A program made the translations under genes and the position numbers. From contig CAVUKA010000001.1 in the NCBI GenBank assembly GCA_963741945.1, positions 128,001 through 192,000 on the forward strand: a DNA stretch of 64,000 bases, given 5' to 3'. The number at the start of each line of letters is the position of its first letter. The first letter of the stretch is position 1. The notes under the pieces were generated by a model, which was not told the DNA's origin, did not search any database, and was given only the letters and a program-made list of their open reading frames with translations. The stretch comes from an uncultured Gemmatimonadales bacterium (GTDB lineage: Bacteria; Gemmatimonadota; Gemmatimonadetes; Longimicrobiales; RSA9). Shown in pieces: positions 1,703 through 19,127 of the stretch.

Positions 1703-2062
1703 ATGGAGAAGCGGACGACGAAGGACCTGGTCGACGACCTTATGGCCCGAGCGGGGGAGGAGGGCGTCCTGCGGGCCGGGCTCGTGGTGGGCTTCGAGGA
1801 TCGGACGGAGACCGTCTGGTCCACCGACACGCACGCACTGCGCACGTTGAACGGGCTGCTGAGAGAAGGCGGGATCCCGGTGGGGCTCGCCCGGTTCGAG
1901 AACGGTGGACTCGAGGTGAACACGCTCCCCGAGTTCGAGGGAGTGGAGTGGGCGGAGCGGTACCTGGTGAGCATCGCCCGGGAGATCATGCAGGGGCTGG
2001 CGCTGCACCTGGGCGTCGACTACGAGCAGGCGCAGGCGCCCGGGGAGGGGCCGCGATCCTGA
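1703..2062 (+). CDS. hypothetical protein, 119 aa
   Basis: GGGGAG RBS before ATG; globular-type composition and GC3-rich codons. Confidence 0.7.
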   Translation: MEKRTTKDLVDDLMARAGEEGVLRAGLVVGFEDRTETVWSTDTHALRTLNGLLREGGIPVGLARFENGGLEVNTLPEFEGVEWAERYLVSIAREIMQGLALHLGVDYEQAQAPGEGPRS

Positions 2063-2325
2063 GCGAGGTCAGAGCGTTGTCTCCCCACGGGAGACCGCGC
2101 GCCGGACGAATCGGTGGTCACGTCTTGACCCACCGGCACCACTCCCCGCATCGTGCAGCAACGATCTGAAAGGGGGGTTGAATTTCTGGTCCGATCTCTT
2201 GCCGCGCCCGTGTCCCCATTCCGGTGCGCAGCCGCTCGCGGGAGGTCTGACCGTTCAATCCTCATCGTGGACTCGATCTTCGCGCTCGTGGTTCGGCGAG
2301 CGAGGTGCCCCTGACGAAGCATGCG

Positions 2326-2345
2326 CTGAATGAGCGCTCGTTCAG
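2326..2345. promoter_or_regulatory. palindromic operator CTGAATGAGCGCTCGTTCAG upstream of fadB
   Basis: 20-bp palindrome with one mismatched pair, ending about 10 bp before the fadB RBS; resembles the B. subtilis FadR/YsiA (TetR) box TGAATGAnnnnTCATTCA. Confidence 0.6.
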
Positions 2346-2364
2346 TTGCGAAACGGAGGTTCCC

Positions 2365-4608
2365 ATGACGTTCGAAGGGCAGTCGATACAGTGTACTGCG
2401 CTCGATGGAGGGATCACGGAGATGCGGTTCGATCTCCAGGGCGATTCCGTCAACAAGTTCAACCGTGCCACTCTGGACGAGCTCCGTGAGGTGGTGGCGC
2501 TCCTCGATGCCGACAGGGACGTCCGGGGCCTTCTGGTCACGAGTGGCAAGGACGGCTTCATCGTCGGCGCCGACGTCACCGAGTTCACCGAGTATTTCAG
2601 CTACAGCGAAGAGGAGCTGATCGATTATCTGCTCGACGTGCACCGGGTGTTTTCGACCGTCGAGGATTTCGATTTCCCGTCCGTGACGGCGATCAACGGA
2701 TTCGCGCTCGGCGGCGGCCTCGAGTTCGCGCTGACCACGAGCTATCGCGTGATGTCGTCGATGGCGAAGATCGGCGTTCCCGAGACGAAGCTGGGGATCT
2801 TTCCCGGCTTTGGAGGGACCGTGCGACTCTCCCGTCTCGCCGGCGCTGACAACGCCATCGAATGGATCGCCGGTGGCAGTCAGTACGACGCCGCAACCGC
2901 ACTGAAGACCGGCGTCGTCGACGCGGTCGTCGCCCCCGAGAAGCTGCGGGATGGCGCGCTGGACCTGCTCGAGCAGGCAATGGCGGGCCGGAGGGACTGG
3001 AAAGCGCGCAGAACCGAGAAGGTCTCGCCGCTCAAGCTCAACCTGACCGAGAGCATGATGGCGTTCGAGACCGCGAAGGGTTTCGTCGCCGGCAAGGCGG
3101 GGCGGAACTATCCGTCGCCGGTGGCCGCGATCAAGGCGATCCAGCAGGGCGCGACGATGGAGCGGGACGACGCGCTGAGCGTCGAGGCGAAGGGCTTCGC
3201 CCGCATGGCGAAGACGCCCACCGCCGCCAACCTGGTCACGATCTTCCTCGGCGATCAGTACGTGAACAAGGTGGCGAAGACCCTGGCGAAGACGGCTCCG
3301 AAGGTGGAGTCGGCCGCGGTGCTCGGCGCGGGGATCATGGGCGGCGGGATCGCCTACCAGTCGGCGTCGAAGGGCGTTCCCATCGTGATGAAGGACATCG
3401 CCGAGAAGGCGCTGGACCTCGGCATGTCCGAGGCGCGCAAGCTCCTGGGGAAGCAGCTCGCGCGTGGAAAGATCACCCCGGACGAGATGGCGGACACCCT
3501 GACGCGGATCCGCCCGACGCTCGCCTTCGGCGACTTCGCCGACGTGGACATCGTCGTGGAAGCGGTGGTGGAAAACGAGAAGATCAAGAAGTCGGTCCTG
3601 GTCGAGGTCGAGGAGGAGGTGAAGGAGGACGCCATCCTGGCCAGCAACACCTCGACGATCTCGATCACGCGGCTCGGCGAGGGGCTGAAGCGGCCGGGGA
3701 ACTTCTGCGGCATGCACTTCTTCAACCCGGTCCACAGGATGCCGCTGGTGGAAGTCATCCGTGGCGAGGCGTCGAGTGAGCGGGCGGTGGCCACCACGGT
3801 CGGCTACGCGCTGGCGATGGGGAAGACGCCGATCGTCGTGAACGACTGTCCGGGGTTCCTGGTGAACCGCGTCCTCTTCCCCTACTTCACCGGCTTCATG
3901 AAGCTGGTGAACGAGGGCGTCGACTTCCTCAGGATCGACGCGGTGATGGAGAAGTTCGGCTGGCCGATGGGGCCCGCCTACCTGCTGGACGTGGTGGGCA
4001 TCGACACGGCGCACCACGCCAACGCGGTCATGGCCGAAGGATACCCCGACCGCATGGCGACGTCGGACCGGAGCGCCATCGACGTCATGTTCGAAGCGGA
4101 GCGCTTCGGACAGAAGAACGGCAAGGGCTTCTACGCCTACGTCCCGGACAGGAAGGGCAAGCCCACGAAGACCGTCGATCCCGAGGCGCAGGCGCTCCTC
4201 GAGCCGCTGGTCCAGACCGACAACAGCGCCTCGATCAGCGAGCAGGACATCATCGACCGCATGATGCTCCCGCTCCTCATCGAATGCTCCCGCTGCCTCG
4301 AGGATGGGATCGTCCGCACGCCGATCGAAGTCGACATCGCCCTGGTCTACGGGCTCGGATTCCCGCCGTTCCGCGGCGGCCCTTTCCGGTACGCCGACTC
4401 CGTCGGTCTGCCCGCCCTCGTGGAGACGGCCGGCAGGTACGAATCGCTTGGAAAGCTCTATGAGCCCACCGCGCAGATGGTGCGGCTCGCCGAGCGGGAC
4501 GGGCAGTTCCACGAGCCCGGCCACGCCTCCGGCCGGGGATCCGATGAACAGCAGCGAGAGGCCGCGGAGGTCGCCGAGCTCGCGGGAACCGTCAAGGAAG
4601 AGAGGTAA
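2365..4608 (+). CDS. fadB: fatty acid oxidation complex subunit alpha (enoyl-CoA hydratase / 3-hydroxyacyl-CoA dehydrogenase)
   Basis: GGAGG RBS and ATG at 2365; [42 protein letters not shown]. Confidence 0.95.
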
Positions 4609-5775
<1,167 letters not shown>

Positions 5776-5811
5776 CGACCGGGCCCACTGAACGAATTCA
5801 CTCGAGGGAAC

Positions 5812-7629
5812 ATGGCTCAGATTCTCGTTGACCGAAGAGATGTGGACTTCGTCCTCCACGAACAGCTGGAGGTCGAGAAGCTCGCCGAACACGAGCGCTT
5901 CGCCGAATTCAACCGGAAGGTGGTCGACCTGGTCATCTCCGAGGCGAGGACGCTCGCCGTGAAGGAGATCCTCCCCACGCAGACCGATGGCGACCGCATT
6001 GGCGCCCGGTTCGACAGCGGCAAGGTGACCGTCCCCGAGTCGTTCCACGGCGCGTGGTCGGCACTGAGAGAGGGGGAGTGGCTGGCGCTGACGGAGGACC
6101 TGGAGTGGGGTGGTCAGGGGATGCCCCGGTCGGTGGCGTCGGCCGCGACGAACTTCCTTCACGCCGCGAACTTCCCCTTCCTGATGTACGGGGGCCTCAG
6201 CCACGGCGCCGGGAAGCTCATCGAGACGTTCGGGACCGAGGAGCAGAAGAAGCTCTTCGTCAAGAAGCTGTACACCGGAGAGTGGACCGGCACCATGCTG
6301 CTGACCGAGCCGCAGGCGGGGTCGGACGTGGGCGCGCTCGAGACCACGGCCACGCCGAACGGCGACGGGACCTATTCGATCGTCGGGAACAAGATCTTCG
6401 CGTCGTCGGGAGAGCACGACCTGGTGGACAACATCATCCATCCCGTGCTCGCGCGCATCGAGGGCGCGCCCGCTGGCACTGCTGGCATCTCGCTTTTCAT
6501 CGTCCCGAAGCTCTGGGTGAACGAAGACGGCAGCCTGGGCGAGCCGAACGACGTGGTCTGCACGGGCATCGAAGAGAAGATGGGGATCCACGGCAACGCC
6601 ACGGCCTCCCTGTCGCTGGGGAGCAAGGGGCAGTGCCGGGGCATGCTGCTGGGCGAGCCGAACAAGGGCATGCGCTCGATGTTCCTCATGATGAACGACG
6701 CCCGGCTGATGGTGGGCGACCAGGCACTCGGCGCCGCCAGCGCCTCGTACATGTTCTCCCTCGATTACGCCCGCACGCGCATCCAGGGGCGGGACCTCCG
6801 CCAGATGAGGGACAAGGAAGCCCCGGGCGTGCCGATCATCCGGCACCCGGACGTGCGCAGGATGCTGATGCTCATGAAAGTGTACGTGGAGGGGCTGCGG
6901 AGCCTCTCGCTCTACATCGCCCACTGCTTCGACCGGATGGCGATCGCCAATGATCCGGACGAGCAGACCCGGCTCCAGGGCATCGTCGACTTCCTGATCC
7001 CCATCGCCAAGGGCTACACCACCGAGCGGAGTGTGGACGTGTGCGACCTCGGGGTCCAGGTGTACGGCGGGTACGGCTACATCAAGGAGTATCCGGTGGA
7101 GCAGCTGCTGCGCGACTCCCGGATCACGCCCATCTACGAGGGGACCAACGGCATCCAGGCCATGGACCTGCTCTTCCGCAAGCTCGGCCAGAATGGTGGG
7201 CGGCCGATCCTCGATATCGCCGAGGAGATCCGCGACGTCATCGCGGACGCCGCCGAAGTGGAGGGGACGGCCGCCATGGCCGACACCATCGAAAAGGCCC
7301 TGATCCGTCTCGAAGAGGTGGCCCGGCACCTGGGGCAGACGGCCATGTTCGGCGAGCTCCCCGTGGCGGCGGCGCACGCCCACCCGTTCCTCGAGGTCTG
7401 CGGCGACATCATTGTCGGCTGGATGCTGCTGTGGCGCGCCCGCATCGCGGCGGAAGCGCTCGCCGCGGGAGCGAAGCGGAAGGATGCAGCGTTCTACGAG
7501 GGCCAGATCTGGAGCGCCGAGTTCTACACGCAGAACATGCTCCCGGTCACCCTCGGGAAGATGGACGTGATCCTGTCGGGCAGCAGCGTGGTGGTCGACA
7601 TCCCCGAGGACGCGTTCGCGGCCCGGTAA
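5812..7629 (+). CDS. acyl-CoA dehydrogenase (about 600-aa type)
   Basis: LTEPQAGSDVG, EEKMGIHG, GVQVYGGYGY, IYEGTNGIQA. Confidence 0.95.
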   Translation: MAQILVDRRDVDFVLHEQLEVEKLAEHERFAEFNRKVVDLVISEARTLAVKEILPTQTDGDRIGARFDSGKVTVPESFHGAWSALREGEWLALTEDLEWGGQGMPRSVASAATNFLHAANFPFLMYGGLSHGAGKLIETFGTEEQKKLFVKKLYTGEWTGTMLLTEPQAGSDVGALETTATPNGDGTYSIVGNKIFASSGEHDLVDNIIHPVLARIEGAPAGTAGISLFIVPKLWVNEDGSLGEPNDVVCTGIEEKMGIHGNATASLSLGSKGQCRGMLLGEPNKGMRSMFLMMNDARLMVGDQALGAASASYMFSLDYARTRIQGRDLRQMRDKEAPGVPIIRHPDVRRMLMLMKVYVEGLRSLSLYIAHCFDRMAIANDPDEQTRLQGIVDFLIPIAKGYTTERSVDVCDLGVQVYGGYGYIKEYPVEQLLRDSRITPIYEGTNGIQAMDLLFRKLGQNGGRPILDIAEEIRDVIADAAEVEGTAAMADTIEKALIRLEEVARHLGQTAMFGELPVAAAHAHPFLEVCGDIIVGWMLLWRARIAAEALAAGAKRKDAAFYEGQIWSAEFYTQNMLPVTLGKMDVILSGSSVVVDIPEDAFAAR

Positions 7630-7645
7630 GGATCCGAAGGAGGAC

Positions 7646-9706
7646 GTGATGGGCCAGATGCCGTTTTCTCCGGCGGCCGCGACGATCGCCGGCATCCCGG
7701 GGTACGTGCTGTTCCTGCTGATCGCGCTGGTGGCGATCGGCATCTTCGCCTGGGTGATCGCGCGCCGCGCGGTGCCGCTGCGCCGCGGCGCGCCAGACCC
7801 GCGCCTCCGTCGAATCCCCGAGCGGGTCGGGAGGGTGGTGAAGTACTGGCTCGGGCAGTGGCGGCACCCGCGCTACCCCCTTGCCGGGGTGCTTCACATC
7901 ATCGTGTTCTTCGGGTTCCTGGTCCTGCTGATACGGTCGACGGAGCTCGTGCTCCTGGGGATCTTCCCGGGATTCGGAATGCCGGGGCTCGGCGGAGGTC
8001 TCGGCGGCGCCTATGATGTCGTGAAGGACTACGCCTCGACTGCGGTCTTCGTAGCGGTCGTGATCCTCGCGATCCGTCGTGGCTTCTTCAGGCCCGCCCG
8101 CTATGCCGTTCCCGAGAAGCTGGGGAAGGATCACACCGCGGAGGCGCTGCTGGTTCTGGGCTTGATCGCGATCCTCATGATCTCCGAGAGCCTCTTCGAG
8201 GCCAGCCTGCTCGCTGCCGATCCGGAAGCCGCCCGCGCCCCCGTGCTGACTCTGGCGTGGGCCTTCGGGCTGCTGCTGTCCGGCACGGCAGTCCCGACCC
8301 TGGCCTCGCTCAACCTGGCGGCGTACACGGTCCACGACCTGACGTTCTTCTCGTTCCTCTGCATTCTCCCGTTCGGGAAGCACTTCCACGTCATCACCTC
8401 GATCTTCAACGTCTTCTTCATGCGGCTGGAGACCGGCACCGTGAAGCCGGTGCGCCACGGCGTCCCGGACGCGGCGCTCGATGACCTCGAGTCGTTCGGT
8501 GTCAAGCGGTTCGAGGACTTCACGTGGAAGCACATGCTGGACTTCTACAGCTGTGTGGACTGCGGCCGCTGCTCCGACCACTGCCCCGCCACCCGGGTGG
8601 GCCGCCCGCTTTCTCCCCGGTTCATCAGCATCAAGGCCCGTGACTACGCGTTCGATCACTACCCGGTGCTCGGCAGCTCCGGGGCGGAGCCGGCACCGCT
8701 GGTCGGCGGCATCTACAGCGAGGACGAGATCCTGTCGTGCACCACCTGCGGCGCGTGCGAGCAGGAGTGCCCGGTGGCCATCGAGTACATCGACAAGATC
8801 GTGGATCTACGCCGCGGCATGGTGGATGACGGCAATGTTCAGCAGTCGTTCCAGAAGCCGCTGGCCTCCCTCCAGAAACGGGGCAATCCGTGGGGCAAGC
8901 TCGAGAGGAAGCGCGCGGAGTGGGTGGACGGAGTCGGCGACGGGGCGGCACTCAAGCTCGTCGAGAACGGGGACACGGCCGGGACGCTGTACTTCGTCGA
9001 CAGCATCACCTCGTATGATGATCGGATGCAGAAGATCGCGCAGGCCACGGCGCGCGTCCTCGCCAGGGGAAACATCGACTTCGTCGTGATCGGCAAGGAC
9101 GAGAAGGACAGCGGCAACGACGTGCGGCGTTTCGGCGAGGAGATGCTGTTCCAGATCCTGAAGGAAGAGAACACCGAGTCGATCCGTGCATCCGGGGCGC
9201 AGGACATCGTCGTGAACGACCCGCACACGCTGAACACGCTGCGCCACGACTACGAGGATATGCCCCGGGTCCGGCACGTCAGCGAGCTGATCGCCGACGC
9301 GGTGGGAAGTGGGCGGCTGAAGCTGAAGCCGATCGCGGGGTCGTCGAAGACCTACACGTATCACGATCCCTGCTACCTCGGTCGCCACAATGGCACCTAC
9401 GATGCCCCGCGGCAGGCGATCGACGGCATTCCGGGGCTGAAGCGCGTCGAGATGGAGGGCAACTGCCGCGACCGCTCCTTCTGCTGTGGGGGTGGCGGCC
9501 TGATGCTCTTCTACGAGCCGCAGGAGGATCAGCGGATGGGCGTGGTCCGGGTCGAGCAGGCCCGGGCGGCGGGCGCCGACGTGATCGTCACCGCCTGCCC
9601 GTACTGCCTGACGAACATCGAGGACGCCATCAAGGTGGCCGGCCTGGAGGGCGAGATGGAGGCCCTCGACCTGGTCGAGCTGATCGATGGGCAGCTTGAG
9701 AACTGA
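7646..9706 (+). CDS. membrane-bound Fe-S oxidoreductase, FadF / ETF:(methyl)menaquinone oxidoreductase-like
   Basis: N-terminal TM helices with His residues; CVDCGRC...CP and CTTCGAC...CP; C-terminal CCG domain (YHDPC, FCCGGGG, TACPYC); lies between the acyl-CoA dehydrogenase and etfBA. Confidence 0.9.
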   Translation: MMGQMPFSPAAATIAGIPGYVLFLLIALVAIGIFAWVIARRAVPLRRGAPDPRLRRIPERVGRVVKYWLGQWRHPRYPLAGVLHIIVFFGFLVLLIRSTELVLLGIFPGFGMPGLGGGLGGAYDVVKDYASTAVFVAVVILAIRRGFFRPARYAVPEKLGKDHTAEALLVLGLIAILMISESLFEASLLAADPEAARAPVLTLAWAFGLLLSGTAVPTLASLNLAAYTVHDLTFFSFLCILPFGKHFHVITSIFNVFFMRLETGTVKPVRHGVPDAALDDLESFGVKRFEDFTWKHMLDFYSCVDCGRCSDHCPATRVGRPLSPRFISIKARDYAFDHYPVLGSSGAEPAPLVGGIYSEDEILSCTTCGACEQECPVAIEYIDKIVDLRRGMVDDGNVQQSFQKPLASLQKRGNPWGKLERKRAEWVDGVGDGAALKLVENGDTAGTLYFVDSITSYDDRMQKIAQATARVLARGNIDFVVIGKDEKDSGNDVRRFGEEMLFQILKEENTESIRASGAQDIVVNDPHTLNTLRHDYEDMPRVRHVSELIADAVGSGRLKLKPIAGSSKTYTYHDPCYLGRHNGTYDAPRQAIDGIPGLKRVEMEGNCRDRSFCCGGGGLMLFYEPQEDQRMGVVRVEQARAAGADVIVTACPYCLTNIEDAIKVAGLEGEMEALDLVELIDGQLEN

Positions 9707-11613: not shown

Positions 11614-12540
11614 CTACGGCAGCAGCACGGCGTCGATCACGTGGATCACGCCATTGGACGCGGCCACGTCCGTGGCCACGACACGCGCGTCGTTCTGCGC
11701 GCCCATCAGCGTCACCCCGCCCGTCAGGTTCACCGTGAACGTCCCGCCCTGGAGCGTGGTCACCACCTGCCCATCGCTGAGGTCCGTCGAGAACACTTCC
11801 GCTCCCACGCCGTGGTAGAGCAGGATGCTCGACAGCACGCCCGGATCCGACGGCACCTGGCCCACTGCCGCGAACGCGCCGTTCGTGGGCGCGAACACGG
11901 TGAAGCCGGCCCCCCCGTTGTCGGTCCGCAGCGTCTCCTCCAGGCCGGCGGCGCGCACCGCACCCACGAGCGCATCGAAGCCCTCCACGGTCGCCACGTC
12001 CACGATGTCCAGGTTGTCCGTCAGCACACCCTCGATCAGGTGAATCACGCCGTTGCTGGCCCTGATGTCCGTACCGATGATCCGGACGCCGTTCACCCGC
12101 GCCTCACCGCTCAGGTCGAACGTCAACGGCGAGCCCTCCGCGCTGGCCACCATGGCGCCGTCCCGGAGGTCCGACGCCAGGATCTCACCCGGCACCACGT
12201 GGTACGTGAGCACTTTCGTCAGGAGAGCCCGGTTCTCCGCAGCCAGCAGCCGCCCGATTCGCTCCTGACCCAGCGCCTGGAAGGCCGGGTCCACCGGCGC
12301 GAACACCGTGAACGGACCTTCGCCGGCCAGCGTCGAAGTCAGCCCCGCCGCGTCCAGCGCCGCCGCCAGCGTGCTCAGCTGCGGCGTGGTCGCCGCCAGC
12401 TCGGCGATCGTCGGCTGCACCACGCTCGCCGGCTCGTCATCACTGCACGCCGACACCGCCACCGGCAACGCCACGGCTCCCGCCACCACCAGGCTGCGAC
12501 GAAGCGCGCGACGCGCCCCGAAAATCTCCTGAATCTGCAT
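11614..12540 (-). CDS. fasciclin (two FAS1 domains) lipoprotein
   Basis: Lipobox VSAC; two repeats of FTVFAP...YH...ASNGVIH. Confidence 0.9.
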   Translation of the reverse strand: MQIQEIFGARRALRRSLVVAGAVALPVAVSACSDDEPASVVQPTIAELAATTPQLSTLAAALDAAGLTSTLAGEGPFTVFAPVDPAFQALGQERIGRLLAAENRALLTKVLTYHVVPGEILASDLRDGAMVASAEGSPLTFDLSGEARVNGVRIIGTDIRASNGVIHLIEGVLTDNLDIVDVATVEGFDALVGAVRAAGLEETLRTDNGGAGFTVFAPTNGAFAAVGQVPSDPGVLSSILLYHGVGAEVFSTDLSDGQVVTTLQGGTFTVNLTGGVTLMGAQNDARVVATDVAASNGVIHVIDAVLLP

Positions 12541-12666
12541 CGCCCTCTCTCCTTCTCGTTGTCTGTTCGCGTCCCGGGACATCCGCCCGGAATCCACTAT
12601 CCCGCCCGACCGCCAGCGCATCGGCCGCGGCCAACGCAGCCGCCGCGGCCGGCCTCAGACCGCCTG

Positions 12667-13182
12667 TCAACGCGGCAGAATCACCGCGTCAATGACGTGG
12701 ATCACCCCGTTCGACGCCTGCACGTCCGCCTTCACCACCGTGGCGTCATCCACCATCACCTTCCCGTCCACCACGCGCACGTTCAGCTTCTGGCCCTGCG
12801 CCGTCCCCGGCCGCGCCCGGCCCGCCGCGATCACGTCCGCCGCCGCGATCCGCCCCGACACCACGTGGTACTTCAGCACCTCCGCCAGCTTCGCCGGGTT
12901 CGCGAGCAGCGACTCCAGCGTCCCCGCCGGCAGCGCCGCGAACGCCGCATTCGTCGGCGCGAACACCGTGAACGGGCCCTCCCCCGTCAGCACCGACTCC
13001 AGCCCCGCCGCCCGCACCGCCGTCAGAAGCGTCTCGAATTCGCCCGCCGCCGCGGCCACCTCCACAATGTTCCCCACCGGCTCCTTCCCGCTCCACGCCC
13101 CCTGCGCCGATCCCGTCGTCGGCATCGCCGCCAGCACGCCCAGCGCGATTCCCAGCATGGCACTCCGGTTCCGTCCGATCAT
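12667..13182 (-). CDS. secreted fasciclin (single FAS1 domain)
   Basis: Signal peptide; GPFTVFAPTNAAF, LKYHVV, ASNGVIHVID. Confidence 0.9.
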   Translation of the reverse strand: MIGRNRSAMLGIALGVLAAMPTTGSAQGAWSGKEPVGNIVEVAAAAGEFETLLTAVRAAGLESVLTGEGPFTVFAPTNAAFAALPAGTLESLLANPAKLAEVLKYHVVSGRIAAADVIAAGRARPGTAQGQKLNVRVVDGKVMVDDATVVKADVQASNGVIHVIDAVILPR

Positions 13183-13226
13183 GATGCTCCCCCTGTCCGT
13201 GGTGTATCCGTCTGTTGTTGTCCAGG

Positions 13227-13255
13227 ACGTTACATGTACAGTCACAGGCTGTCAA
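13227..13255 (-). promoter_or_regulatory. sigma70-type promoter for the fasciclin genes (TTGACA-N17-TAACGT)
   Basis: Consensus -35 and a TAnnnT -10 at exactly 17 nt spacing, about 45 nt upstream of the start codon. Confidence 0.65.
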
Positions 13256-13306: not shown

Positions 13307-13354
13307 CAGGAGGAGAGGGCGGCGGGGGGCCGGTACCGACGAACGGGAGGCGCG

Positions 13355-14281
13355 ATGAGCGGCGGCGAGGAGGGTGCGATCCACCCTATTGGAGTGGCGG
13401 CGGAGCGGTCGGGGCTGACGGCGGATGTGATCCGTGCGTGGGAGAGACGCTACGGTGTGGTCGAGCCCCGGCGTGATGCGGCGGGGCGGCGGGTGTACAC
13501 GGCGGCGGACATCGCGCGCCTGCGGCTGCTGTCGCGGGCGACGGAAGGGGGGCGGTCGATCGGTCAGGTGGCGGATCTGGATGCGTCGCGGCTGGAGGAG
13601 ATCGTCGCCCAGGATGAAGCGGGTCGGAGGGCCGCCGCGCCGGGTCCCAGGGTTCCGGACAGCGCGGGCGAGGTCGTGGCGGAGGCGTTGAAGCGGGTGC
13701 GGGCGCTGGAAGGGGCCGCCCTGGAGTCGCTGCTGGTCCGGACGGCGTCGCTCTACGGCGTTCCCGCCTTCCTGCGGGCCGTGGTCGCACCGCTGTTCCG
13801 GGCCATCGGCGACGAGTGGCACGCGGGCAGCCTGCTGCCGTCGCAGGAGCATCTCGCCACGGCCATCGTGCGGAGCGTGCTGGGGCGGGTGCTGGCGCGC
13901 ATTCCCGTCGCGGGAGACGCCCCGGTGCTGCTGGTGGCCACGCCGGCGGGGGAGCGACACGAGATCGGCGCTCTGCTGGCGGCGGCGGAAGCGACCATCG
14001 AGGGGTGGCGCGTGGTCTACCTCGGCGCGGACCTGCCTGCGGCGGAGATCGCTTCGGCGGCGAAGGTGGTGGGAGCGCGGATGGTGGCGCTCGGGTCGGT
14101 CTACGCGCCGGACCCCGGGTCGCTGCGGCGGGAGGTGGAAGCGGTCCGGGCGGCGCTTCCGGAGCAGGTGACGCTGCTGGTGGGGGGACCCGCGATGGTG
14201 CTGCTGGCGGGCGAGCTGGGCGGTGCGGAAGGCGTGGTGATCACCGACGACCTGGACGATCTGGCCAGCCGGCTGCACTGA
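13355..14281 (+). CDS. carH: MerR-family cobalamin-binding regulator (CarH/LitR-like photoreceptor)
   Basis: MerR HTH (IRAWERRYG...GRRVY), W-x9-EH (WHAGSLLPSQEH) and GERHEIG B12-binding motif; GGGAGG RBS. Confidence 0.85.
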   Translation: MSGGEEGAIHPIGVAAERSGLTADVIRAWERRYGVVEPRRDAAGRRVYTAADIARLRLLSRATEGGRSIGQVADLDASRLEEIVAQDEAGRRAAAPGPRVPDSAGEVVAEALKRVRALEGAALESLLVRTASLYGVPAFLRAVVAPLFRAIGDEWHAGSLLPSQEHLATAIVRSVLGRVLARIPVAGDAPVLLVATPAGERHEIGALLAAAEATIEGWRVVYLGADLPAAEIASAAKVVGARMVALGSVYAPDPGSLRREVEAVRAALPEQVTLLVGGPAMVLLAGELGGAEGVVITDDLDDLASRLH

Positions 14282-14312
14282 AGACGGTTCCTTCGCTTCG
14301 TGCCTCCCTGGC

Positions 14313-16397
14313 TCAGCGGTAGCCTCCCTCGAACAGGGGCCAGCGGTGGTGGACGCCGATGGTGAGGGCGAACTGCCTATCGGTCACCAGCGCCCTGGCA
14401 AGGTCGATGCGAATCACGCCCAGCTGCCCGCCGGCCACGCCCATGCGGAGGCCCGCACCGCCGTCGAGATAGAAGCGGTTGGCCGCGGACTCGTCGACCG
14501 CCCGTGTGATCCCGGCGGCGTCGAGGAACAGGCCCGCGGCGAGGACGAAGGGCCCGGCGCGATAGAGGGGGTAGTCGCCGGCGATGCCCGCGTGGACGAT
14601 CCCCCGGCCGACGGTCCGGCCCACGAGGTATCCGCGGTCGGTGGGTACGTGGGCTCGAAGCGGAACGGTCCAGGGGAGAGCCCCCCCGGCCACGGGCCAG
14701 GTCCCGGGCGGAGCGTGCGTGCCCGCCCAGTCGAAGCCCGAGCGGACCGACCAGGCCGGTCGGCTCAGGCCGAGGGAGGAAGCCCAGGCCGCCCGGACGC
14801 CCGCGCTCGTGTAGGACGGGGCGGCCGAGAGCGTGAACGCGTGCTCCGCAGTGACCGCCATCTGGAAGCGATCGTCCCGTCCCTCGAGAGCGGCGCCGAC
14901 CGAGGTTGCGAGATGGCGCCGATCGCCGGACCATCGCTCCAGCCTCAATGCGGCGAGCGGACGAAGGGCGGGCGTGACCCAGCCGCCGAACGCGAGCCCC
15001 GCGGATCTGCGGGTCTCCTCGAAGACGGCCGTCCTCTCCGCGTTGCGGGCGAAACGGAACTGTTCCCACGCCCCCTCCACAGTGACGATGCCCGGGTGAC
15101 CGGCATGGACCGGCATGTCGACCCGGAAGACGCCACGGGGCCGGGCGGCCTCCCAGCGCCAGGTTGCGGTCCACAGCTCGCCGCCTCCGGTCGGGCTGGC
15201 GACCTCCATCTCCACTTCCTTGCGGGCGACGGCGCCGACGGCCCCGGACGCGGCCAGGAGCCAGAGACTCTCCACGCGAGGGCGTTCGACCACGTTCGCC
15301 CGGATCTCGGCCAGCCCGCCCGGCACCGGCGCATACTCCACGGTGGCCTGGCGAAGCGCCGGGACCTCGGAGATCCGGCGTCGGGCGAGGACCAGCCGGG
15401 ACGGGGTGAGGAGCGTGCCGGGGGGCAGCGCGAGGGCGCCGGCGAGCTCGCTGAACCGGATCGTCCGCACGCCATCGATCCGGACGATGTCCACCGTGGG
15501 CCGGCCGACGCGGTTCCAGGCCCGGAGGGCGCCACTCCCATTGTCCACCAGGTATCGGCTGGTGCCCAGGAGCTGCCAGCCGAGCGCGTCGTCTGGAACG
15601 CGCGCCACGTACTCGGAGGCAACGCGTATGGCCTCCTGATAGCGTCCCTGCCTGAACCGGACAGCGGCGGTTTCGCGCAGCACCCGCGGCTCCGCGGGGC
15701 ACGCCTGCCCTGCTTCGGCGAGCAGCCCGGACGCGTCATCCAGTCGATTGGCCGCCACGGCATCGAGGGATCGGTCGATCCAGGGAGGGCACGGCGCGGG
15801 CGGGGGCGTGGCAGGCCGAACCGTGCTGTCGACCCCCGCCAGGGCCGGGGCGGCCGGCTCGGGGCGGATCCGCATCGCCCACCGACCGCCCCCCGCCCAG
15901 CGAGTCAGGAAGGAGGCCTCATCCATGGTGATGGACGGGGCTCTGGCGGGATCGTGGACCACCACGTTCCCACCCATCCAGCCGATGACGACGACGTAGT
16001 GGTAACGACCCCTGGCGACCTGGATGAGAACCACCACGGGGACGCCGTCGCGGAGGCTTTGCTGGAGCAGCTCGGGCGTGCCGCGGAACGTCCGGGTGTC
16101 CCAGCCTCGAGCGCGCGTGGCCGACTCCAGGTCGCTGGTCAGGATCCCGCCGGAATCCGGACGGACCAGGCTCTCGAAATCCTCGGCGTAGACTCCTCGC
16201 CGCCCCCACCACCGCTCGACCATGGCGACGGTCGCTCCACCGCACAGCAGCTCGGACTGGGGCAGGTACGGCACGTCGAGCACGACCGGCTGGCCGGCGC
16301 CTGACCCCGAAAGCGCCCGTCGGCCTGCTCCCGAAGAAGCACAGCCGAGAACCGAGAGCCAGAGTCCAGCCGCGACCAGCCGGGCGACACTGCGCAC
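14313..16397 (-). CDS. lipoprotein: C39-like cysteine peptidase + TPR + POTRA + Omp85-like beta-barrel
   Basis: Lipobox VLGC; PQSELLCG, HYVVV and HDP catalytic motifs; TPR helices; POTRA-like VDIVRIDG...VVERP; C-terminal GAGLR...GVIRIDLA. Confidence 0.75.
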   Translation of the reverse strand: MRSVARLVAAGLWLSVLGCASSGAGRRALSGSGAGQPVVLDVPYLPQSELLCGGATVAMVERWWGRRGVYAEDFESLVRPDSGGILTSDLESATRARGWDTRTFRGTPELLQQSLRDGVPVVVLIQVARGRYHYVVVIGWMGGNVVVHDPARAPSITMDEASFLTRWAGGGRWAMRIRPEPAAPALAGVDSTVRPATPPPAPCPPWIDRSLDAVAANRLDDASGLLAEAGQACPAEPRVLRETAAVRFRQGRYQEAIRVASEYVARVPDDALGWQLLGTSRYLVDNGSGALRAWNRVGRPTVDIVRIDGVRTIRFSELAGALALPPGTLLTPSRLVLARRRISEVPALRQATVEYAPVPGGLAEIRANVVERPRVESLWLLAASGAVGAVARKEVEMEVASPTGGGELWTATWRWEAARPRGVFRVDMPVHAGHPGIVTVEGAWEQFRFARNAERTAVFEETRRSAGLAFGGWVTPALRPLAALRLERWSGDRRHLATSVGAALEGRDDRFQMAVTAEHAFTLSAAPSYTSAGVRAAWASSLGLSRPAWSVRSGFDWAGTHAPPGTWPVAGGALPWTVPLRAHVPTDRGYLVGRTVGRGIVHAGIAGDYPLYRAGPFVLAAGLFLDAAGITRAVDESAANRFYLDGGAGLRMGVAGGQLGVIRIDLARALVTDRQFALTIGVHHRWPLFEGGYR

Positions 16398-16415
16398 GCT
16401 ATGCCGCCGCGATGC

Positions 16416-16799
16416 TCAGAGGGTCAGAAGCAGGACGACCAGCAGGACGATGATGACGGTCGTCGTCGTGATCACGATCGTATTGGCGCCACCCGCCATG
16501 GCTGCCTGGCTGAGCCCCGCCTCGTCGGCGATCCGGTCCAGCGACGCGTCGTCGAGCGCGGCGACCCGGTTCGAGAGATCGGAGACACTCACCCCGAGCC
16601 GACCGGCGACTTCCTGCCCCTGGTCCGTCGCGAGGAGATGCTGGATCGCCCCGCGGGCATTGGAATCGACGTGCTTCGTGGCGATGGCGGCATCCAGCTC
16701 CGCACTGCTCACGGCGCTCCGCTCCTGGGCGGAAAGCGGGCCCGTAAGAGAGAGAGCGGCGAGGGACAGACTCATGGACAACAGGAAACGTCTGGACAT
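16416..16799 (-). CDS. PA2779-like secreted protein with AGG and a hydrophobic C-terminal tail
   Basis: Signal peptide, LGVS...RVAALDD core, ...AMAGG followed by ANTIVITTTTVIIVLLVVLLLTL; immediately upstream of the C39 peptidase. Confidence 0.75.
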   Translation of the reverse strand: MSRRFLLSMSLSLAALSLTGPLSAQERSAVSSAELDAAIATKHVDSNARGAIQHLLATDQGQEVAGRLGVSVSDLSNRVAALDDASLDRIADEAGLSQAAMAGGANTIVITTTTVIIVLLVVLLLTL

Positions 16800-17120
16800 G
16801 CGTTCCTCCGGAACAAGGGGAGCAGGCCATTCGGCACAATGACTGTGTACATGGACGCTACCGGCGAGCCGCTGCGTGGCCAATCGCTCGAAGGGACGAG
16901 ATTGAGATTAGTCCAAAAGGGGGAGTTGAGGCGCGTGGGCGAGTACGCCTCGTCGCCCGGACGGGTTACCTCGCCCATCATCCGCCTGGTGGATACTCAG
17001 GAAGGCTGGCTTCCGACAACTTAGGATCGAAAGCAGGTGCGAGGCGCGCGCGCGGCTACCTTTGTGATGCCCCGAGCCTGCCCTGTTGTCCTGCCGGGTC
17101 CTTTCATGGAGGAAACCAGC

Positions 17121-17345
17121 ATGCACGCCAGAAGGATCGCAGCGGCCGCGCTCATCGTGATGGGCATCCTCGGCCTCGTTCTCGGCCAGTTCGTATTCGG
17201 CAGGGAGACCCACCGCGCGTCGGTCGGCCCCATGGAGGTGTCCGTCAGCGAGCAGCGCACCGTCAACATCCCGCTCTGGGCCGGCCTGGGAGCGATCGTG
17301 CTCGGCGGCGTCCTGCTGCTGCCTCTCGGGAAAGGGAAGGCGTGA
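17121..17345 (+). CDS. small two-TM membrane protein
   Basis: GGAGG RBS; two hydrophobic helices flanking a beta-hairpin-like segment (HRASVGPMEVSV...VNIPLW). Confidence 0.8.
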   Translation: MHARRIAAAALIVMGILGLVLGQFVFGRETHRASVGPMEVSVSEQRTVNIPLWAGLGAIVLGGVLLLPLGKGKA

Positions 17346-17456
17346 TGCGGTGGACGCGCCCTGCCACCGTCGCACCTCTGATGGAGCGGCAGGGCTCCAC
17401 CGACGGGATCGCCGGGTCCGGAGGGGCCATCGACCCCGCCATCGGAACGCCGCTGA

Positions 17457-19127
17457 ATGCTCGCTAACCCGGCGGCACGCACGTGGCGGAGCGCCCGGAT
17501 GCTGGTTCTCTCGCCGTTCCTGCTCCTCTGCTGCACGTCCTCACCGGCGGAGGACCCGCCGCTGGGCGAGCGAGCGCTGGCTGTCGCGGCGGTGTTCGAG
17601 ACGGCCCACCCGTACAGCGAACGGACCGTGGACTCCCTCGACCTTGCCGCCTTCTTCACCCGATACCCCGGGTACCGGACCGACTCGGCCTCCGTCGTGG
17701 ACTTCTACGAAAGACGCGCCATGCAGTTCGCATGGATCGTTCGCGACTCGCTCTCCGCCAGCGCCATAGCCTTCGTGGACCTCGCTGGCCTCGCTCACAC
17801 CGGCGAGTTCCAGGCTGTCGCCGCGGGTCCCAGCCTCGGCGATCTCTACGGGCAGGGCTTCGCCGAGGGCGCGCGCGTGCCCGGGTGCGACAGCTGTGCC
17901 GCCGACCTGGAGCTGCGCCTCACCGCAGAGTTCTTCCGTTTCGCCGGCCGCCGATACGATGGCTACCTGAGCCGTGACCTCCGCGACCTGAACTGGTTCA
18001 TTCCCCGTGGCAAGAAGGACCTTTCGCGTCTGCTGGATTCACTGGCCGTGGGGAAGATGGATCTCGCCGCGTACGAGCCCATGCACCCGCAGTACCAGCT
18101 GCTGAAAGCCAGCATTCGACAGATGCGCCAATTGGCGGATGAGCCGTGGCCCGCGCTGGAACTGCCCGCAGGCAGACGAAGGGTCGATGCCGGCGACAGT
18201 GTCGACGTGATCGGCGCCATCCGCCACCGCCTGCACTTGCTCGAGGACCTGGGAGAAGACGGATCCTCGCCCGTATACGACAGCGCGGCGGTCTCGGCCG
18301 TGGAGCGCTTCCAGCTGCGCCATGGCCTGGTGATCGACGGCATCATCGGCCCCACGTTCCTGCGCGCCATCGACGTGCCCCCGGCAACCCGTCTGCGCAC
18401 CATGCTCATCAACATGGAGCGCCTGCGCTGGGTGCCCGAGAAGCAGCCGTCCGATCTGCTCGCGGTGAACATTCCCGAGTTCCGGCTGCACGTGTATGAG
18501 AAGGGCGCCGAAGTGATGAGCATGGAGGTGGTGGTGGGCAAGGACGCCACACGCACGGTGGTCTTCGCCGACACGCTGTCGCAGATCGTGTTCAACCCCA
18601 CCTGGACGGTACCGGCGAGCATCACGCGCGATGAGATCCTGCCCGCTATGCGAAGGGACCCCAACTACCTTCGGAACAACAGCATGGAGATCATCGGTGG
18701 CACCGCTTCGGCCCCGCTGGTGCGCCAGCGGCCGGGACCGTCCAACGCGCTGGGTCGGGTGAAGTTCCTCTTTCCCAACAGCTACAGCATCTACATGCAT
18801 GACACTCCGTCCCAGGCTGCGTTCGGCCGCGAAGCGCGGGCCTTCAGTCACGGCTGCATACGCCTGAGCCGACCGCGGGAGCTGGCGGAGTACCTGCTGC
18901 GGGATGACCCCGACTGGACCCCTGCGCGCATCGGCCAGGCCATGCGCGGGGGGCGCACGACCACGGTGCAGCTGAAGGACCAGCGGCCGGTGATGATCTG
19001 GTACTTCACGGCCTGGGTCGACGGGGAGGGCCGGCTGAACTTCCGCGACGACGTATACGGCCACGACGAGCAGCTGGCCCAGGACCTGTTTCTCGAACCG
19101 GACAGCGGGTCCGGAGCGTTTCGGTAG
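17457..19127 (+). CDS. L,D-transpeptidase, YcbB/LdtD-like, with peptidoglycan-binding domain
   Basis: FQLRHGL..DGIIG, NMERLRW, NALGRVKF, IYMHDTP, FSHGCIRL. Confidence 0.9.
   Translation: MLANPAARTWRSARMLVLSPFLLLCCTSSPAEDPPLGERALAVAAVFETAHPYSERTVDSLDLAAFFTRYPGYRTDSASVVDFYERRAMQFAWIVRDSLSASAIAFVDLAGLAHTGEFQAVAAGPSLGDLYGQGFAEGARVPGCDSCAADLELRLTAEFFRFAGRRYDGYLSRDLRDLNWFIPRGKKDLSRLLDSLAVGKMDLAAYEPMHPQYQLLKASIRQMRQLADEPWPALELPAGRRRVDAGDSVDVIGAIRHRLHLLEDLGEDGSSPVYDSAAVSAVERFQLRHGLVIDGIIGPTFLRAIDVPPATRLRTMLINMERLRWVPEKQPSDLLAVNIPEFRLHVYEKGAEVMSMEVVVGKDATRTVVFADTLSQIVFNPTWTVPASITRDEILPAMRRDPNYLRNNSMEIIGGTASAPLVRQRPGPSNALGRVKFLFPNSYSIYMHDTPSQAAFGREARAFSHGCIRLSRPRELAEYLLRDDPDWTPARIGQAMRGGRTTTVQLKDQRPVMIWYFTAWVDGEGRLNFRDDVYGHDEQLAQDLFLEPDSGSGAFR

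Follow-up and report, generated by a model that had tools for sequence, protein, structure and literature searches.

Two adjacent minus-strand genes, lying in a 64,000-nucleotide stretch of DNA from an uncultured Gemmatimonadales bacterium (GenBank assembly GCA_963741945.1, contig CAVUKA010000001.1, positions 128,001 to 192,000; hereafter the window, whose numbering is used throughout), encode what is probably a processing or release device of the cell envelope. The product of the larger gene, P0001, unites a C39 double-glycine peptidase, a TPR domain, a POTRA domain and a barrel of the Omp85 fold in a single chain; that of the smaller, P0002, is a partner with a signal peptide, a small helical domain and a hydrophobic tail preceded by Gly-Gly. 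We put at roughly one in two the probability that the peptidase, anchored in the outer membrane, captures its partner by the N-terminus and cuts it off an inner-membrane anchor. The case for such a device is carried by the domain architecture of P0001, the pairing of the two genes across genomes, the predicted binding of their products and the conservation of the Gly-Gly itself.

The two genes and their products

The peptidase gene (14313-16397, stop codon included; all coordinates within the two genes refer to the minus strand) begins with GTG and encodes 694 amino acids. It follows, after a spacer of 18 nucleotides (16398-16415), the partner gene (16416-16799), which starts at an inner ATG at 16799 of an enclosing open reading frame (ORF) spanning 16416-16883 and yields a protein of 127 amino acids; on direct reading of the sequence, a Shine-Dalgarno-like GGAGGA (16804-16809) stands 4 nucleotides ahead of this ATG. 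An initial annotation, made from the sequence alone, had described the adjacency, the spacing and both product lengths, all borne out by the ORF coordinates, and had named motifs in the two proteins (Q-x4-C, HY and HD; an AMAGG tail; G.GLR...IRIDLA), every one of which is present on direct reading. The G+C content of the region is 73%, and a shadow ORF of 652 amino acids, a product of this high G+C, runs antisense to the peptidase gene (14346-16304, plus strand), so that ORF length alone proves nothing here; comparable shadow frames form the second-largest ORF cluster across related loci. Pfam scores, homologues and the AlphaFold2 model identify the minus-strand frame as the genuine coding frame.

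Among 8,000 candidates scored, 674 were homologues of P0001 at E <= 0.001; the 120 homologues listed range from 571 to 702 amino acids and, the window's own copy excepted, share 53-75% identity with it. In a 50%-identity library the matching representatives fell from 1,887 at E <= 0.001 to 767 at 1e-10 and to 389 at 1e-30. A further 115 matches were shorter than 381 amino acids; most were contig-end fragments, and a few lay on long contigs. Conservation was read from an alignment (A1) of P0001 with 78 relatives, comprising 73 of 150 listed cluster representatives and five sequences from the homologue search, in which near-full-length single-stretch matches were kept and fragments left out. The chain opens with a signal peptide (16341-16397) that on direct reading contains a lipobox-like VLGC with Cys19. 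The initial annotation had called P0001 a lipoprotein, a description that suits the motif of this copy and fails as a trait of the family, since a lipobox-like motif occurs in eight of the 79 aligned sequences and the remainder resemble ordinary signal peptides.

Residues 40-179 (15861-16280) form the C39 peptidase domain. Two Pfam models score above their cut-offs (Peptidase_C39_2, PF13529, 35.3 bits against 24; Peptidase_C39, PF03412, 30.8 bits against 22), and the expected motifs are found as Q47-x4-C52, H133-Y134 and H148-D149. The region aligns with the ComA peptidase domain (3k8u/5xe8, E 3.6e-5), Cys, His and Asp each falling in register, and the P0001 family profile reaches ComA 8hf6 (E 8.4e-9), PCAT1 (1.5e-5) and LahT (5.3e-5). 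Judged by its model scores and by a catalytic Cys, His and Asp with upstream Gln, P0001 is a member of the C39 family and its peptidase looks active; the catalytic set that had been described as intact (Q47, C52, H133, D149) is invariant in 79 of 79 sequences of A1. The best curated family in NCBIfam is the PA2778 family cysteine peptidase (NF033920; 61.7 bits, E 6.7e-17, below the cut-off of 150), aligned over residues 40-281 to model positions 3-234 of 255.

Beyond the peptidase, a Pro/Ala-rich linker (residues 180-205; 15783-15860), modelled at low confidence (predicted local distance difference test, pLDDT, 48-67), leads to a TPR domain of six helices (residues 206-295; 15513-15782), recognised by Pfam TPR_14 at 30.3 bits against a cut-off of 23.5 and predicted to be the receptor for the partner's N-terminus. 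The AlphaFold2 model, with A1 as its alignment, reaches pLDDT 90.7 and a predicted template-modelling score of 0.87. In it the TPR domain passes over a junction of about 5 residues into a single POTRA domain (residues 301-371; 15285-15497), with the DSSP order strand-helix-helix-strand-strand, and the chain closes with the Omp85-fold barrel (residues 373-688; 14334-15281), assigned from Foldseek and VIA structural matches. Foldseek placed TamA (4c00) first, at E 4.9e-14, among 198 PDB chains at E <= 0.001. VIA aligned Pseudomonas aeruginosa TamA at Z 26.3 (root-mean-square deviation 4.6, 356 residues, model residues 281-686), Escherichia coli TamA at 24.0, the barrel-only TamA 4n74 at 23.6 (278 of 314 residues aligned, model residues 373-688), FhaC at 22.9, CdiB at 22.6 and BamA at about 21-22.5; these matches cover model residues 281-691, and the alignments to TamA and BamA begin at residues 281-300. 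The family profile itself reaches Bacteroides BamA (9hiv, E 2.6e-4), the barrel residues R581, D626, D645 and G647 are invariant in A1, and the G.GLR...IRIDLA motif occupies residues 646-668. No barrel or POTRA family of Pfam matched P0001 at E <= 1, and NCBIfam Omp85_fam (NF047779) gave E 0.22; because standard domain models miss the barrel, genes of this kind are annotated merely as 'C39 family peptidase'. At the level of predicted fold, the C-terminal half of P0001 is an Omp85 fold preceded by a POTRA domain, and the domain order first read from the sequence agrees with Pfam, AlphaFold2, Foldseek and VIA.

One detail of the modelled barrel stands apart. DSSP assigns it 15 long strands, up to residue 683, where Omp85 barrels count sixteen, and a hydrophobic helix of 15 residues (378-392; 15222-15266) that lies beside the lateral seam at the place of barrel strand 1 in TamA and BamA. 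Ten strands and this helix precede the loop with the invariant Arg; for that loop to lie on the outside, as it should, the chain must cross the membrane an odd number of times before it, and the helix has to supply one of the crossings. The helix may be genuine, or it may have arisen in the modelling.

The best curated family of the partner is NCBIfam PA2779_fam (NF033919; E 1.7e-8, 34.6 bits, below the cut-off of 40); Pfam DUF6627 gave no match to P0002 at E <= 0.01, nor was any other Pfam family found on it. Its relatives were compared in an alignment of 68 sequences (A3), made of P0002 and 67 upstream genes (of 75 references) from the 80 genome-contig loci described below, after the removal of three near-duplicates, three picks short at the N-terminus and two genes with broken frames. 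PA2779_fam matches all 68 members at E <= 0.01 and DUF6627 matches 42, and in the protein atlas the relatives of P0002 fall among DUF6627 clusters. The kinship with PA2778/PA2779 gene pairs that the initial annotation had proposed is therefore supported by the best NCBIfam family of each protein, both at scores below the curated cut-offs.

The partner begins with a signal peptide (about residues 1-25; 16725-16799) that has a hydrophobic helix at residues 4-16 and would end at PLSAQ, with P21, A24 and Q25 conserved around this point. The mature N-terminal segment (residues 27-43; 16671-16721), modelled as helical at 32-41, is predicted to occupy the TPR groove, and it is followed by a four-helix core (residues 48-93; 16521-16658; helices 48-57, 59-68, 72-81 and 84-93) at pLDDT 82-90 in a model that averages 71.7. 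A Foldseek search of the PDB with this model returned nothing at E <= 0.001 (best FlhD, E 2.6) and a wide VIA search matched no solved fold (best Z 4.4), blanks that are no proof of a new fold. A flexible stretch (residues 94-106, pLDDT 54-64) then carries the candidate cleavage site, Gly103-Gly104 (codons ggt ggc, 16488-16493), and the tail reads AMAGG followed by ANT and 20 hydrophobic residues, modelled as a C-terminal membrane helix at 107-126 (16422-16481). Across the 68 relatives G103 is the sole invariant column (100%), G104 and A65 are each kept in 99%, and L56, G69 and T113 are also among the most conserved positions.

Gene pairing and predicted binding

In a phylum sample of 151 genomes, for which seven candidates were scored per genome so that counts are lower bounds, at least 12 genomes match P0001 at E <= 1e-10 and the full-length form was seen in at least eight; 8 of 8 full-length loci have the partner gene immediately upstream. 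One of these eight peptidase genes, in a Gemmatimonadota genome of four contigs (G045; L010/L015/L016, C2:327341-329377), is split into three frames, and both genes of the module are broken there over several frames, through either decay or assembly errors.

A second set consisted of the best 80 of 385 stretches encoding a P0001 relative in species-representative genomes. All 80 loci come from metagenome-assembled genomes, so some of their labels may be binning errors: by record title they comprise 39 Gemmatimonadota, 20 Acidobacteriota/Vicinamibacteria, five Eisenbacteria and four Krumholzibacteria, then two Fibrobacteraceae, two Bifidobacteriaceae, one Polyangiaceae, one delta proteobacterium, one Rhodothermales and five unclassified. 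The partner is present in 78 loci, directly upstream and on the same strand in 77, and frame-broken or partial in four; the two loci without it have only about 100 nucleotides of upstream DNA. In a Vicinamibacterales record (L083) the order is reversed: the partner-like gene stands downstream of the peptidase gene, perhaps as part of a second, tandem module. Of 76 complete tails, 75 have Gly-Gly ahead of the membrane helix and one reads GA; in 68 of those 75 the position at -4 is occupied by L, I, V or F. The window's genome holds a single copy of each gene, and a tail profile and a regular expression found no second partner-like tail among its 40,591 ORFs, so that the relation of peptidase to partner is one to one in this genome. 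Strict pairing thus holds within the window's clade, in keeping with the co-occurrence that the initial annotation had expected, and is not universal among more distant forms.

These distant forms were followed in an acidobacterial class sample of 121 genomes, 49 of which match P0001. The partner adjoins 19 of 21 close fused loci there (one of the 19 from the unpublished G267); of the two without it, one has no upstream DNA and the other (L115) has no partner within 1.4 kb. In five genomes the protein is split, a free C39 gene of about 150 amino acids with its own signal peptide being followed by a TPR-POTRA-barrel gene that also has one, and in a sixth genome the second split gene stands at a contig start. 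Since the split peptidase still lies beside the TPR-POTRA-barrel gene, this arrangement supports the view that peptidase and barrel act as one functional unit. The split-form genomes carry one to four DUF6627-like genes elsewhere. A further candidate, G182, was rejected as a true split between C39-TPR and POTRA-barrel, its second frame leaving no room for a signal peptide. Seven stand-alone C39-TPR genes, with a layout like that of PA2778, each have a partner directly upstream, and within 4 kb of none of them could a barrel gene be detected. Eight of the DUF6627-like genes from elsewhere in the split-form genomes were fetched (L136-L143, in the acidobacterial genomes G167, G185, G200, G203 and G217); they form a subfamily whose tails read DPxAG and then a membrane helix, and none lies within about 1.5 kb of a C39 gene.

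For the predicted complex, P0001 residues 36-375 were co-folded with partner residues 26-127 in three runs, alongside three controls. The interaction score ipSAE (interaction prediction score from aligned errors) was 0.78, 0.78 and 0.80, against 0.00 for the best control; in calibration, 58 of 80 solved complexes scored at this mark or above, as did 2 of 110 mismatched pairs, a rough guide since we used our own alignments. The pLDDT of the partner was at least 63, and the runs share at least 45% of their contacts. The confident interface sets partner residues 27-43 (in particular 27-30, 32, 35-36, 38-40 and 42-43) against TPR groove residues 208-283 and POTRA edge residues 356-360. On the partner's side V30 is kept in 81% of the 68 relatives, A38 in 79% and L35 in 62%; on the receptor's side conservation is higher in the interface columns of the TPR domain than in its other columns (mean entropy 1.51, n=17, vs 2.05, n=73; one-sided Mann-Whitney p = 0.017), a comparison that draws on related sequences and so lends modest support. 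On these predictions the pair likely binds. The initial annotation had looked to a co-fold to bring the AGG site into the active site; the co-fold does favour binding, with confident contacts that lie at the TPR groove and the POTRA edge and not at that site.

Proposed mechanism and rival explanations

If P0001 does release its partner from the inner membrane, the sequence of events would run as follows. Both proteins would be exported by Sec, as their signal peptides suggest; the partner would be held in the inner membrane by its last helix, as the hydrophobic tail implies, its helical domain of about 79 residues lying in the periplasm; and P0001 would be inserted in the outer membrane through its barrel, with POTRA, TPR and C39 domains facing the periplasm, to go by the fold. 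The TPR groove would catch the mature N-terminal helix of the partner, the step that the co-fold predicts, and the C39 domain would cut after Gly104, parting the soluble domain from the 23-residue membrane helix. Cleavage at Gly-Gly is plausible, at about even odds, and is drawn from the chemistry of the family and the conservation of the site because the co-fold contacts lie elsewhere.

Several observations weigh against such a release. The confident contacts of the co-fold include neither the Gly-Gly nor the catalytic cleft, although their absence is no evidence of non-contact. There is also a problem of reach, in that the peptidase would hang from the outer membrane and the Gly-Gly lies some 3 residues from the inner-membrane helix. 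The pattern upstream of the Gly-Gly fits a classical double-glycine leader in part, being hydrophobic at -4 and -15 and not at the -7 and -12 that we take to belong to the consensus, and the conservation of the membrane helix (T113 93%, I123 90%, L119 and L124 88%) exceeds what a plain anchor needs. In flanks of about 1-1.5 kb, no partner was found beside three divergent fused genes (E 1e-90 to 1e-122), one of whose loci lacks upstream DNA, or beside the five split loci, one of them at a contig start. Finally, the partners at all seven stand-alone C39-TPR loci read AAG followed by D, A, S or Q, not GG. Because these paired forms read AAG, the Gly-Gly is, as far as the compared sequences tell, a trait of the fused clade and not of pairing or of the whole superfamily. 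The notion that Gly-Gly tracks a C39 neighbour, suggested by the eight unpaired DPxAG relatives, was ruled out by the same seven forms.

Two rivals depart from release by cleavage at opposite ends, one adding export to the cut and the other dispensing with the cut. Were cleavage coupled to export, the severed 79-residue domain would cross the outer membrane through the barrel, as TpsB proteins do for TpsA. The barrel resembles translocases too, FhaC and CdiB scoring between TamA and BamA; the partner is predicted to touch the POTRA edge at residues 356-360; barrel, receptor and peptidase share one chain; and in FapD and FapF a periplasmic C39 peptidase is already known to serve an exporter of the outer membrane. 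P0001 nevertheless differs from TpsB systems, for all the similarity of its fold to FhaC, in having one POTRA domain and not two, in lacking an N-terminal plug helix in the model and in having a partner without a TPS domain in Pfam, and its best matches, TamA and BamA, have barrels described in the main text of PMC4104836 as closed to the outside. We regard coupled export as unlikely, and both transport by the barrel and the departure of a product from the cell as speculative. The alternative without a cut at this site holds that the partner bridges the two membranes, N-terminus on the TPR domain and C-terminus in its anchor, or regulates the peptidase, with C39 acting elsewhere and the Gly-Gly serving as a hinge. 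It would explain why the sole confident predicted interface joins the partner's N-terminus to the TPR domain, why the Gly-Gly sits in a flexible linker and why the membrane helix is so strongly conserved; TamA, the best structural match, works with TamB, which is anchored in the inner membrane; and the missing adjacent partner at divergent fused and split loci, like the eight of eight DUF6627 relatives without a C39 neighbour, sits easily with it. It would, however, make a coincidence of an invariant Gly-Gly beside a peptidase of a family specific for Gly-Gly, no other protein of the genome bears a similar tail, and the invariant catalytic residues imply some substrate. We hold a tether or regulator, too, to be an improbable account of the pair.

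The remaining two explanations are less probable again. In one, the 79-residue domain would be a long leader of the NHLP or Nif11 type and the cut would mature a 23-residue hydrophobic peptide, which the barrel might handle. The tail is conserved beyond mere hydrophobicity, at T113, at I123 and in an ISTT-like stretch, the peptidase has a weak NCBIfam match to the NHLP bacteriocin exporter family (E 3.8e-4), and the layout of long leader, Gly-Gly and short core is known for precursors of ribosomally synthesised and post-translationally modified peptides. The tail nonetheless looks like any stop-transfer helix, and a Sec signal peptide sets the precursor apart from the double-glycine precursors known so far; the partner matched none of the NHLP or Nif11 models at E <= 1, and clustering of the 80 loci gave no conserved modification or immunity genes nearby. 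A peptide product has little probability. In the other, P0001 would be an autotransporter akin to type Vd, its own barrel moving the C39 passenger to the surface to cut external Gly-Gly substrates. The initial annotation had remarked on the type Vd (PlpD) layout, and the likeness is there, with an N-terminal enzyme, one POTRA domain and an Omp85-type barrel in one chain and a linker of 26 Pro/Ala-rich residues after the C39 domain; what did not survive is the passenger, for there is no patatin domain in Pfam, and the TPR domain that stands between enzyme and POTRA joins the latter over some 5 residues and must therefore stay periplasmic. That TPR domain is also predicted to bind a partner exported to the periplasm only, the partner gene is dedicated, and the split forms have C39 as a free protein with its own signal peptide, all of which makes export of the enzyme unlikely and this explanation the remotest of those considered.

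Surroundings, related systems and significance

Nothing else at the locus travels with the pair. Apart from shadow frames running across the peptidase gene, clustering of 4,249 ORFs from the 80 loci brought out a single recurrent neighbour, a YGGT-family gene that lies upstream in 12 of these loci; because this clustering gave no further conserved neighbour, the unit is taken to be two genes. A scan of 14100-17500 for promoters and terminators returned 0 sites of each kind, and by eye the upstream region bears a weak resemblance to sigma-54 promoters, no search for the sigma-54 pattern having been made. In the window itself, a MerR-type regulator with two B12-binding domains, in a CarH/LitR-like layout (13349-14281, plus strand), converges on the peptidase gene across a gap of 31 nucleotides. 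Beyond it lie two adjoining genes for secreted proteins (11614-12621 and 12667-13245, both minus strand), the latter encoding a fasciclin-domain protein and the former a product that by eye resembles a tandem fasciclin. On the other side an L,D-transpeptidase (YkuD) with Scaffold and peptidoglycan-binding domains (17457-19127, plus strand) is divergent from the pair, and the longest open frame in the first half of the window encodes 1,907 amino acids (2020-7743, minus strand).

Among known systems the nearest is the PA2778/PA2779 pair, which shares with the module the C39 and TPR domains and a small upstream partner with a signal peptide and a C-terminal membrane helix. The comparison, made through family models, falls short of their cut-offs for both proteins, and P0001 adds a POTRA domain and an Omp85 barrel, about 390 residues in all; the stand-alone C39-TPR forms of Acidobacteriota differ likewise, both in the barrel gene not detected nearby and in their AAG partners. 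The C39 domains of ComA, PCAT1 and LahT, with which P0001 shares kinship in sequence and aligned catalytic residues, work in the cytoplasm as part of an inner-membrane ABC exporter and remove N-terminal leaders; P0001, by contrast, carries a signal peptide and an outer-membrane barrel, and its cut would fall close to the C-terminus of its partner. Periplasmic proteases do work at outer-membrane barrels, as FapD does with FapF and BepA at the BAM complex, but there protease and barrel are separate proteins, BepA being a metalloprotease with a TPR domain; in NCBIfam, P0001 matches the BepA TPR region at E 0.0019 and FapD at E 0.097. The partner's tail recalls the GlyGly-CTERM/rhombosortase system, whose substrates end in Gly-Gly, a membrane helix and a short, often charged end. 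The tripartite plan is shared, but the place of the rhomboid is taken here by a cysteine peptidase in a soluble domain, the peptidase has a single partner where a rhombosortase has many substrates, and the GlyGly-CTERM model matched neither P0002, among its NCBIfam hits at E <= 1, nor any of the 68 relatives at E <= 0.01.

With TamA and BamA the module shares the fold of POTRA and barrel, and the invariant loop Arg, with an F-x-D in the next strand but one, resembles what we take to be the Omp85 loop-6 and strand-13 motifs. P0001 differs from them in having one POTRA domain as against three or five, in its loop motif LRAH, in a strand 1 modelled as a helix and in escaping the Omp85 models of Pfam and NCBIfam. 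By fold it would belong to the Omp85/TpsB superfamily, of which Heinz and Lithgow (2014; PMC4104836) distinguish ten subfamilies in their main text, one of them, 'Metallo', being likewise a fusion of an enzyme to Omp85. That main text contains no C39, peptidase, TPR or Gemmatimonad term, though the supplementary tables might list such a cluster. In the portions of the literature that our searches returned, PA2778 and PA2779 figure only as hypothetical genes, PA2779 beside bswR and PA2778 as a putative C39 protein in a screen of the type VI secretion system. The same searches gave nothing on DUF6627, PF20332, NF033919, NF033920 or the 'PA2778 family', and no description of a C39 peptidase joined to POTRA and Omp85.

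To a gene pair catalogued without a function, the fused form adds an Omp85 barrel and a testable hypothesis, and to the Omp85 superfamily it adds an enzyme-bearing architecture that goes unmentioned in the main text of the 2014 survey. The module is common in soil phyla that are hard to culture, namely Gemmatimonadota, Acidobacteriota, Eisenbacteria and Krumholzibacteriota. The boldest possibility, which we entertain tentatively and judge unlikely, is that the pair belongs to an unrecognised outer-membrane pathway in which one Omp85 protein uses its TPR domain to recognise the N-terminus of a client tethered in the inner membrane, frees that client with its own double-glycine peptidase and moves or inserts one of the two products through its barrel. 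If so, the pathway would be a self-contained outer-membrane counterpart of the peptidase-containing ABC exporters, and, should the barrel take part in transport, it would add a previously unknown path through the outer membrane or into it.

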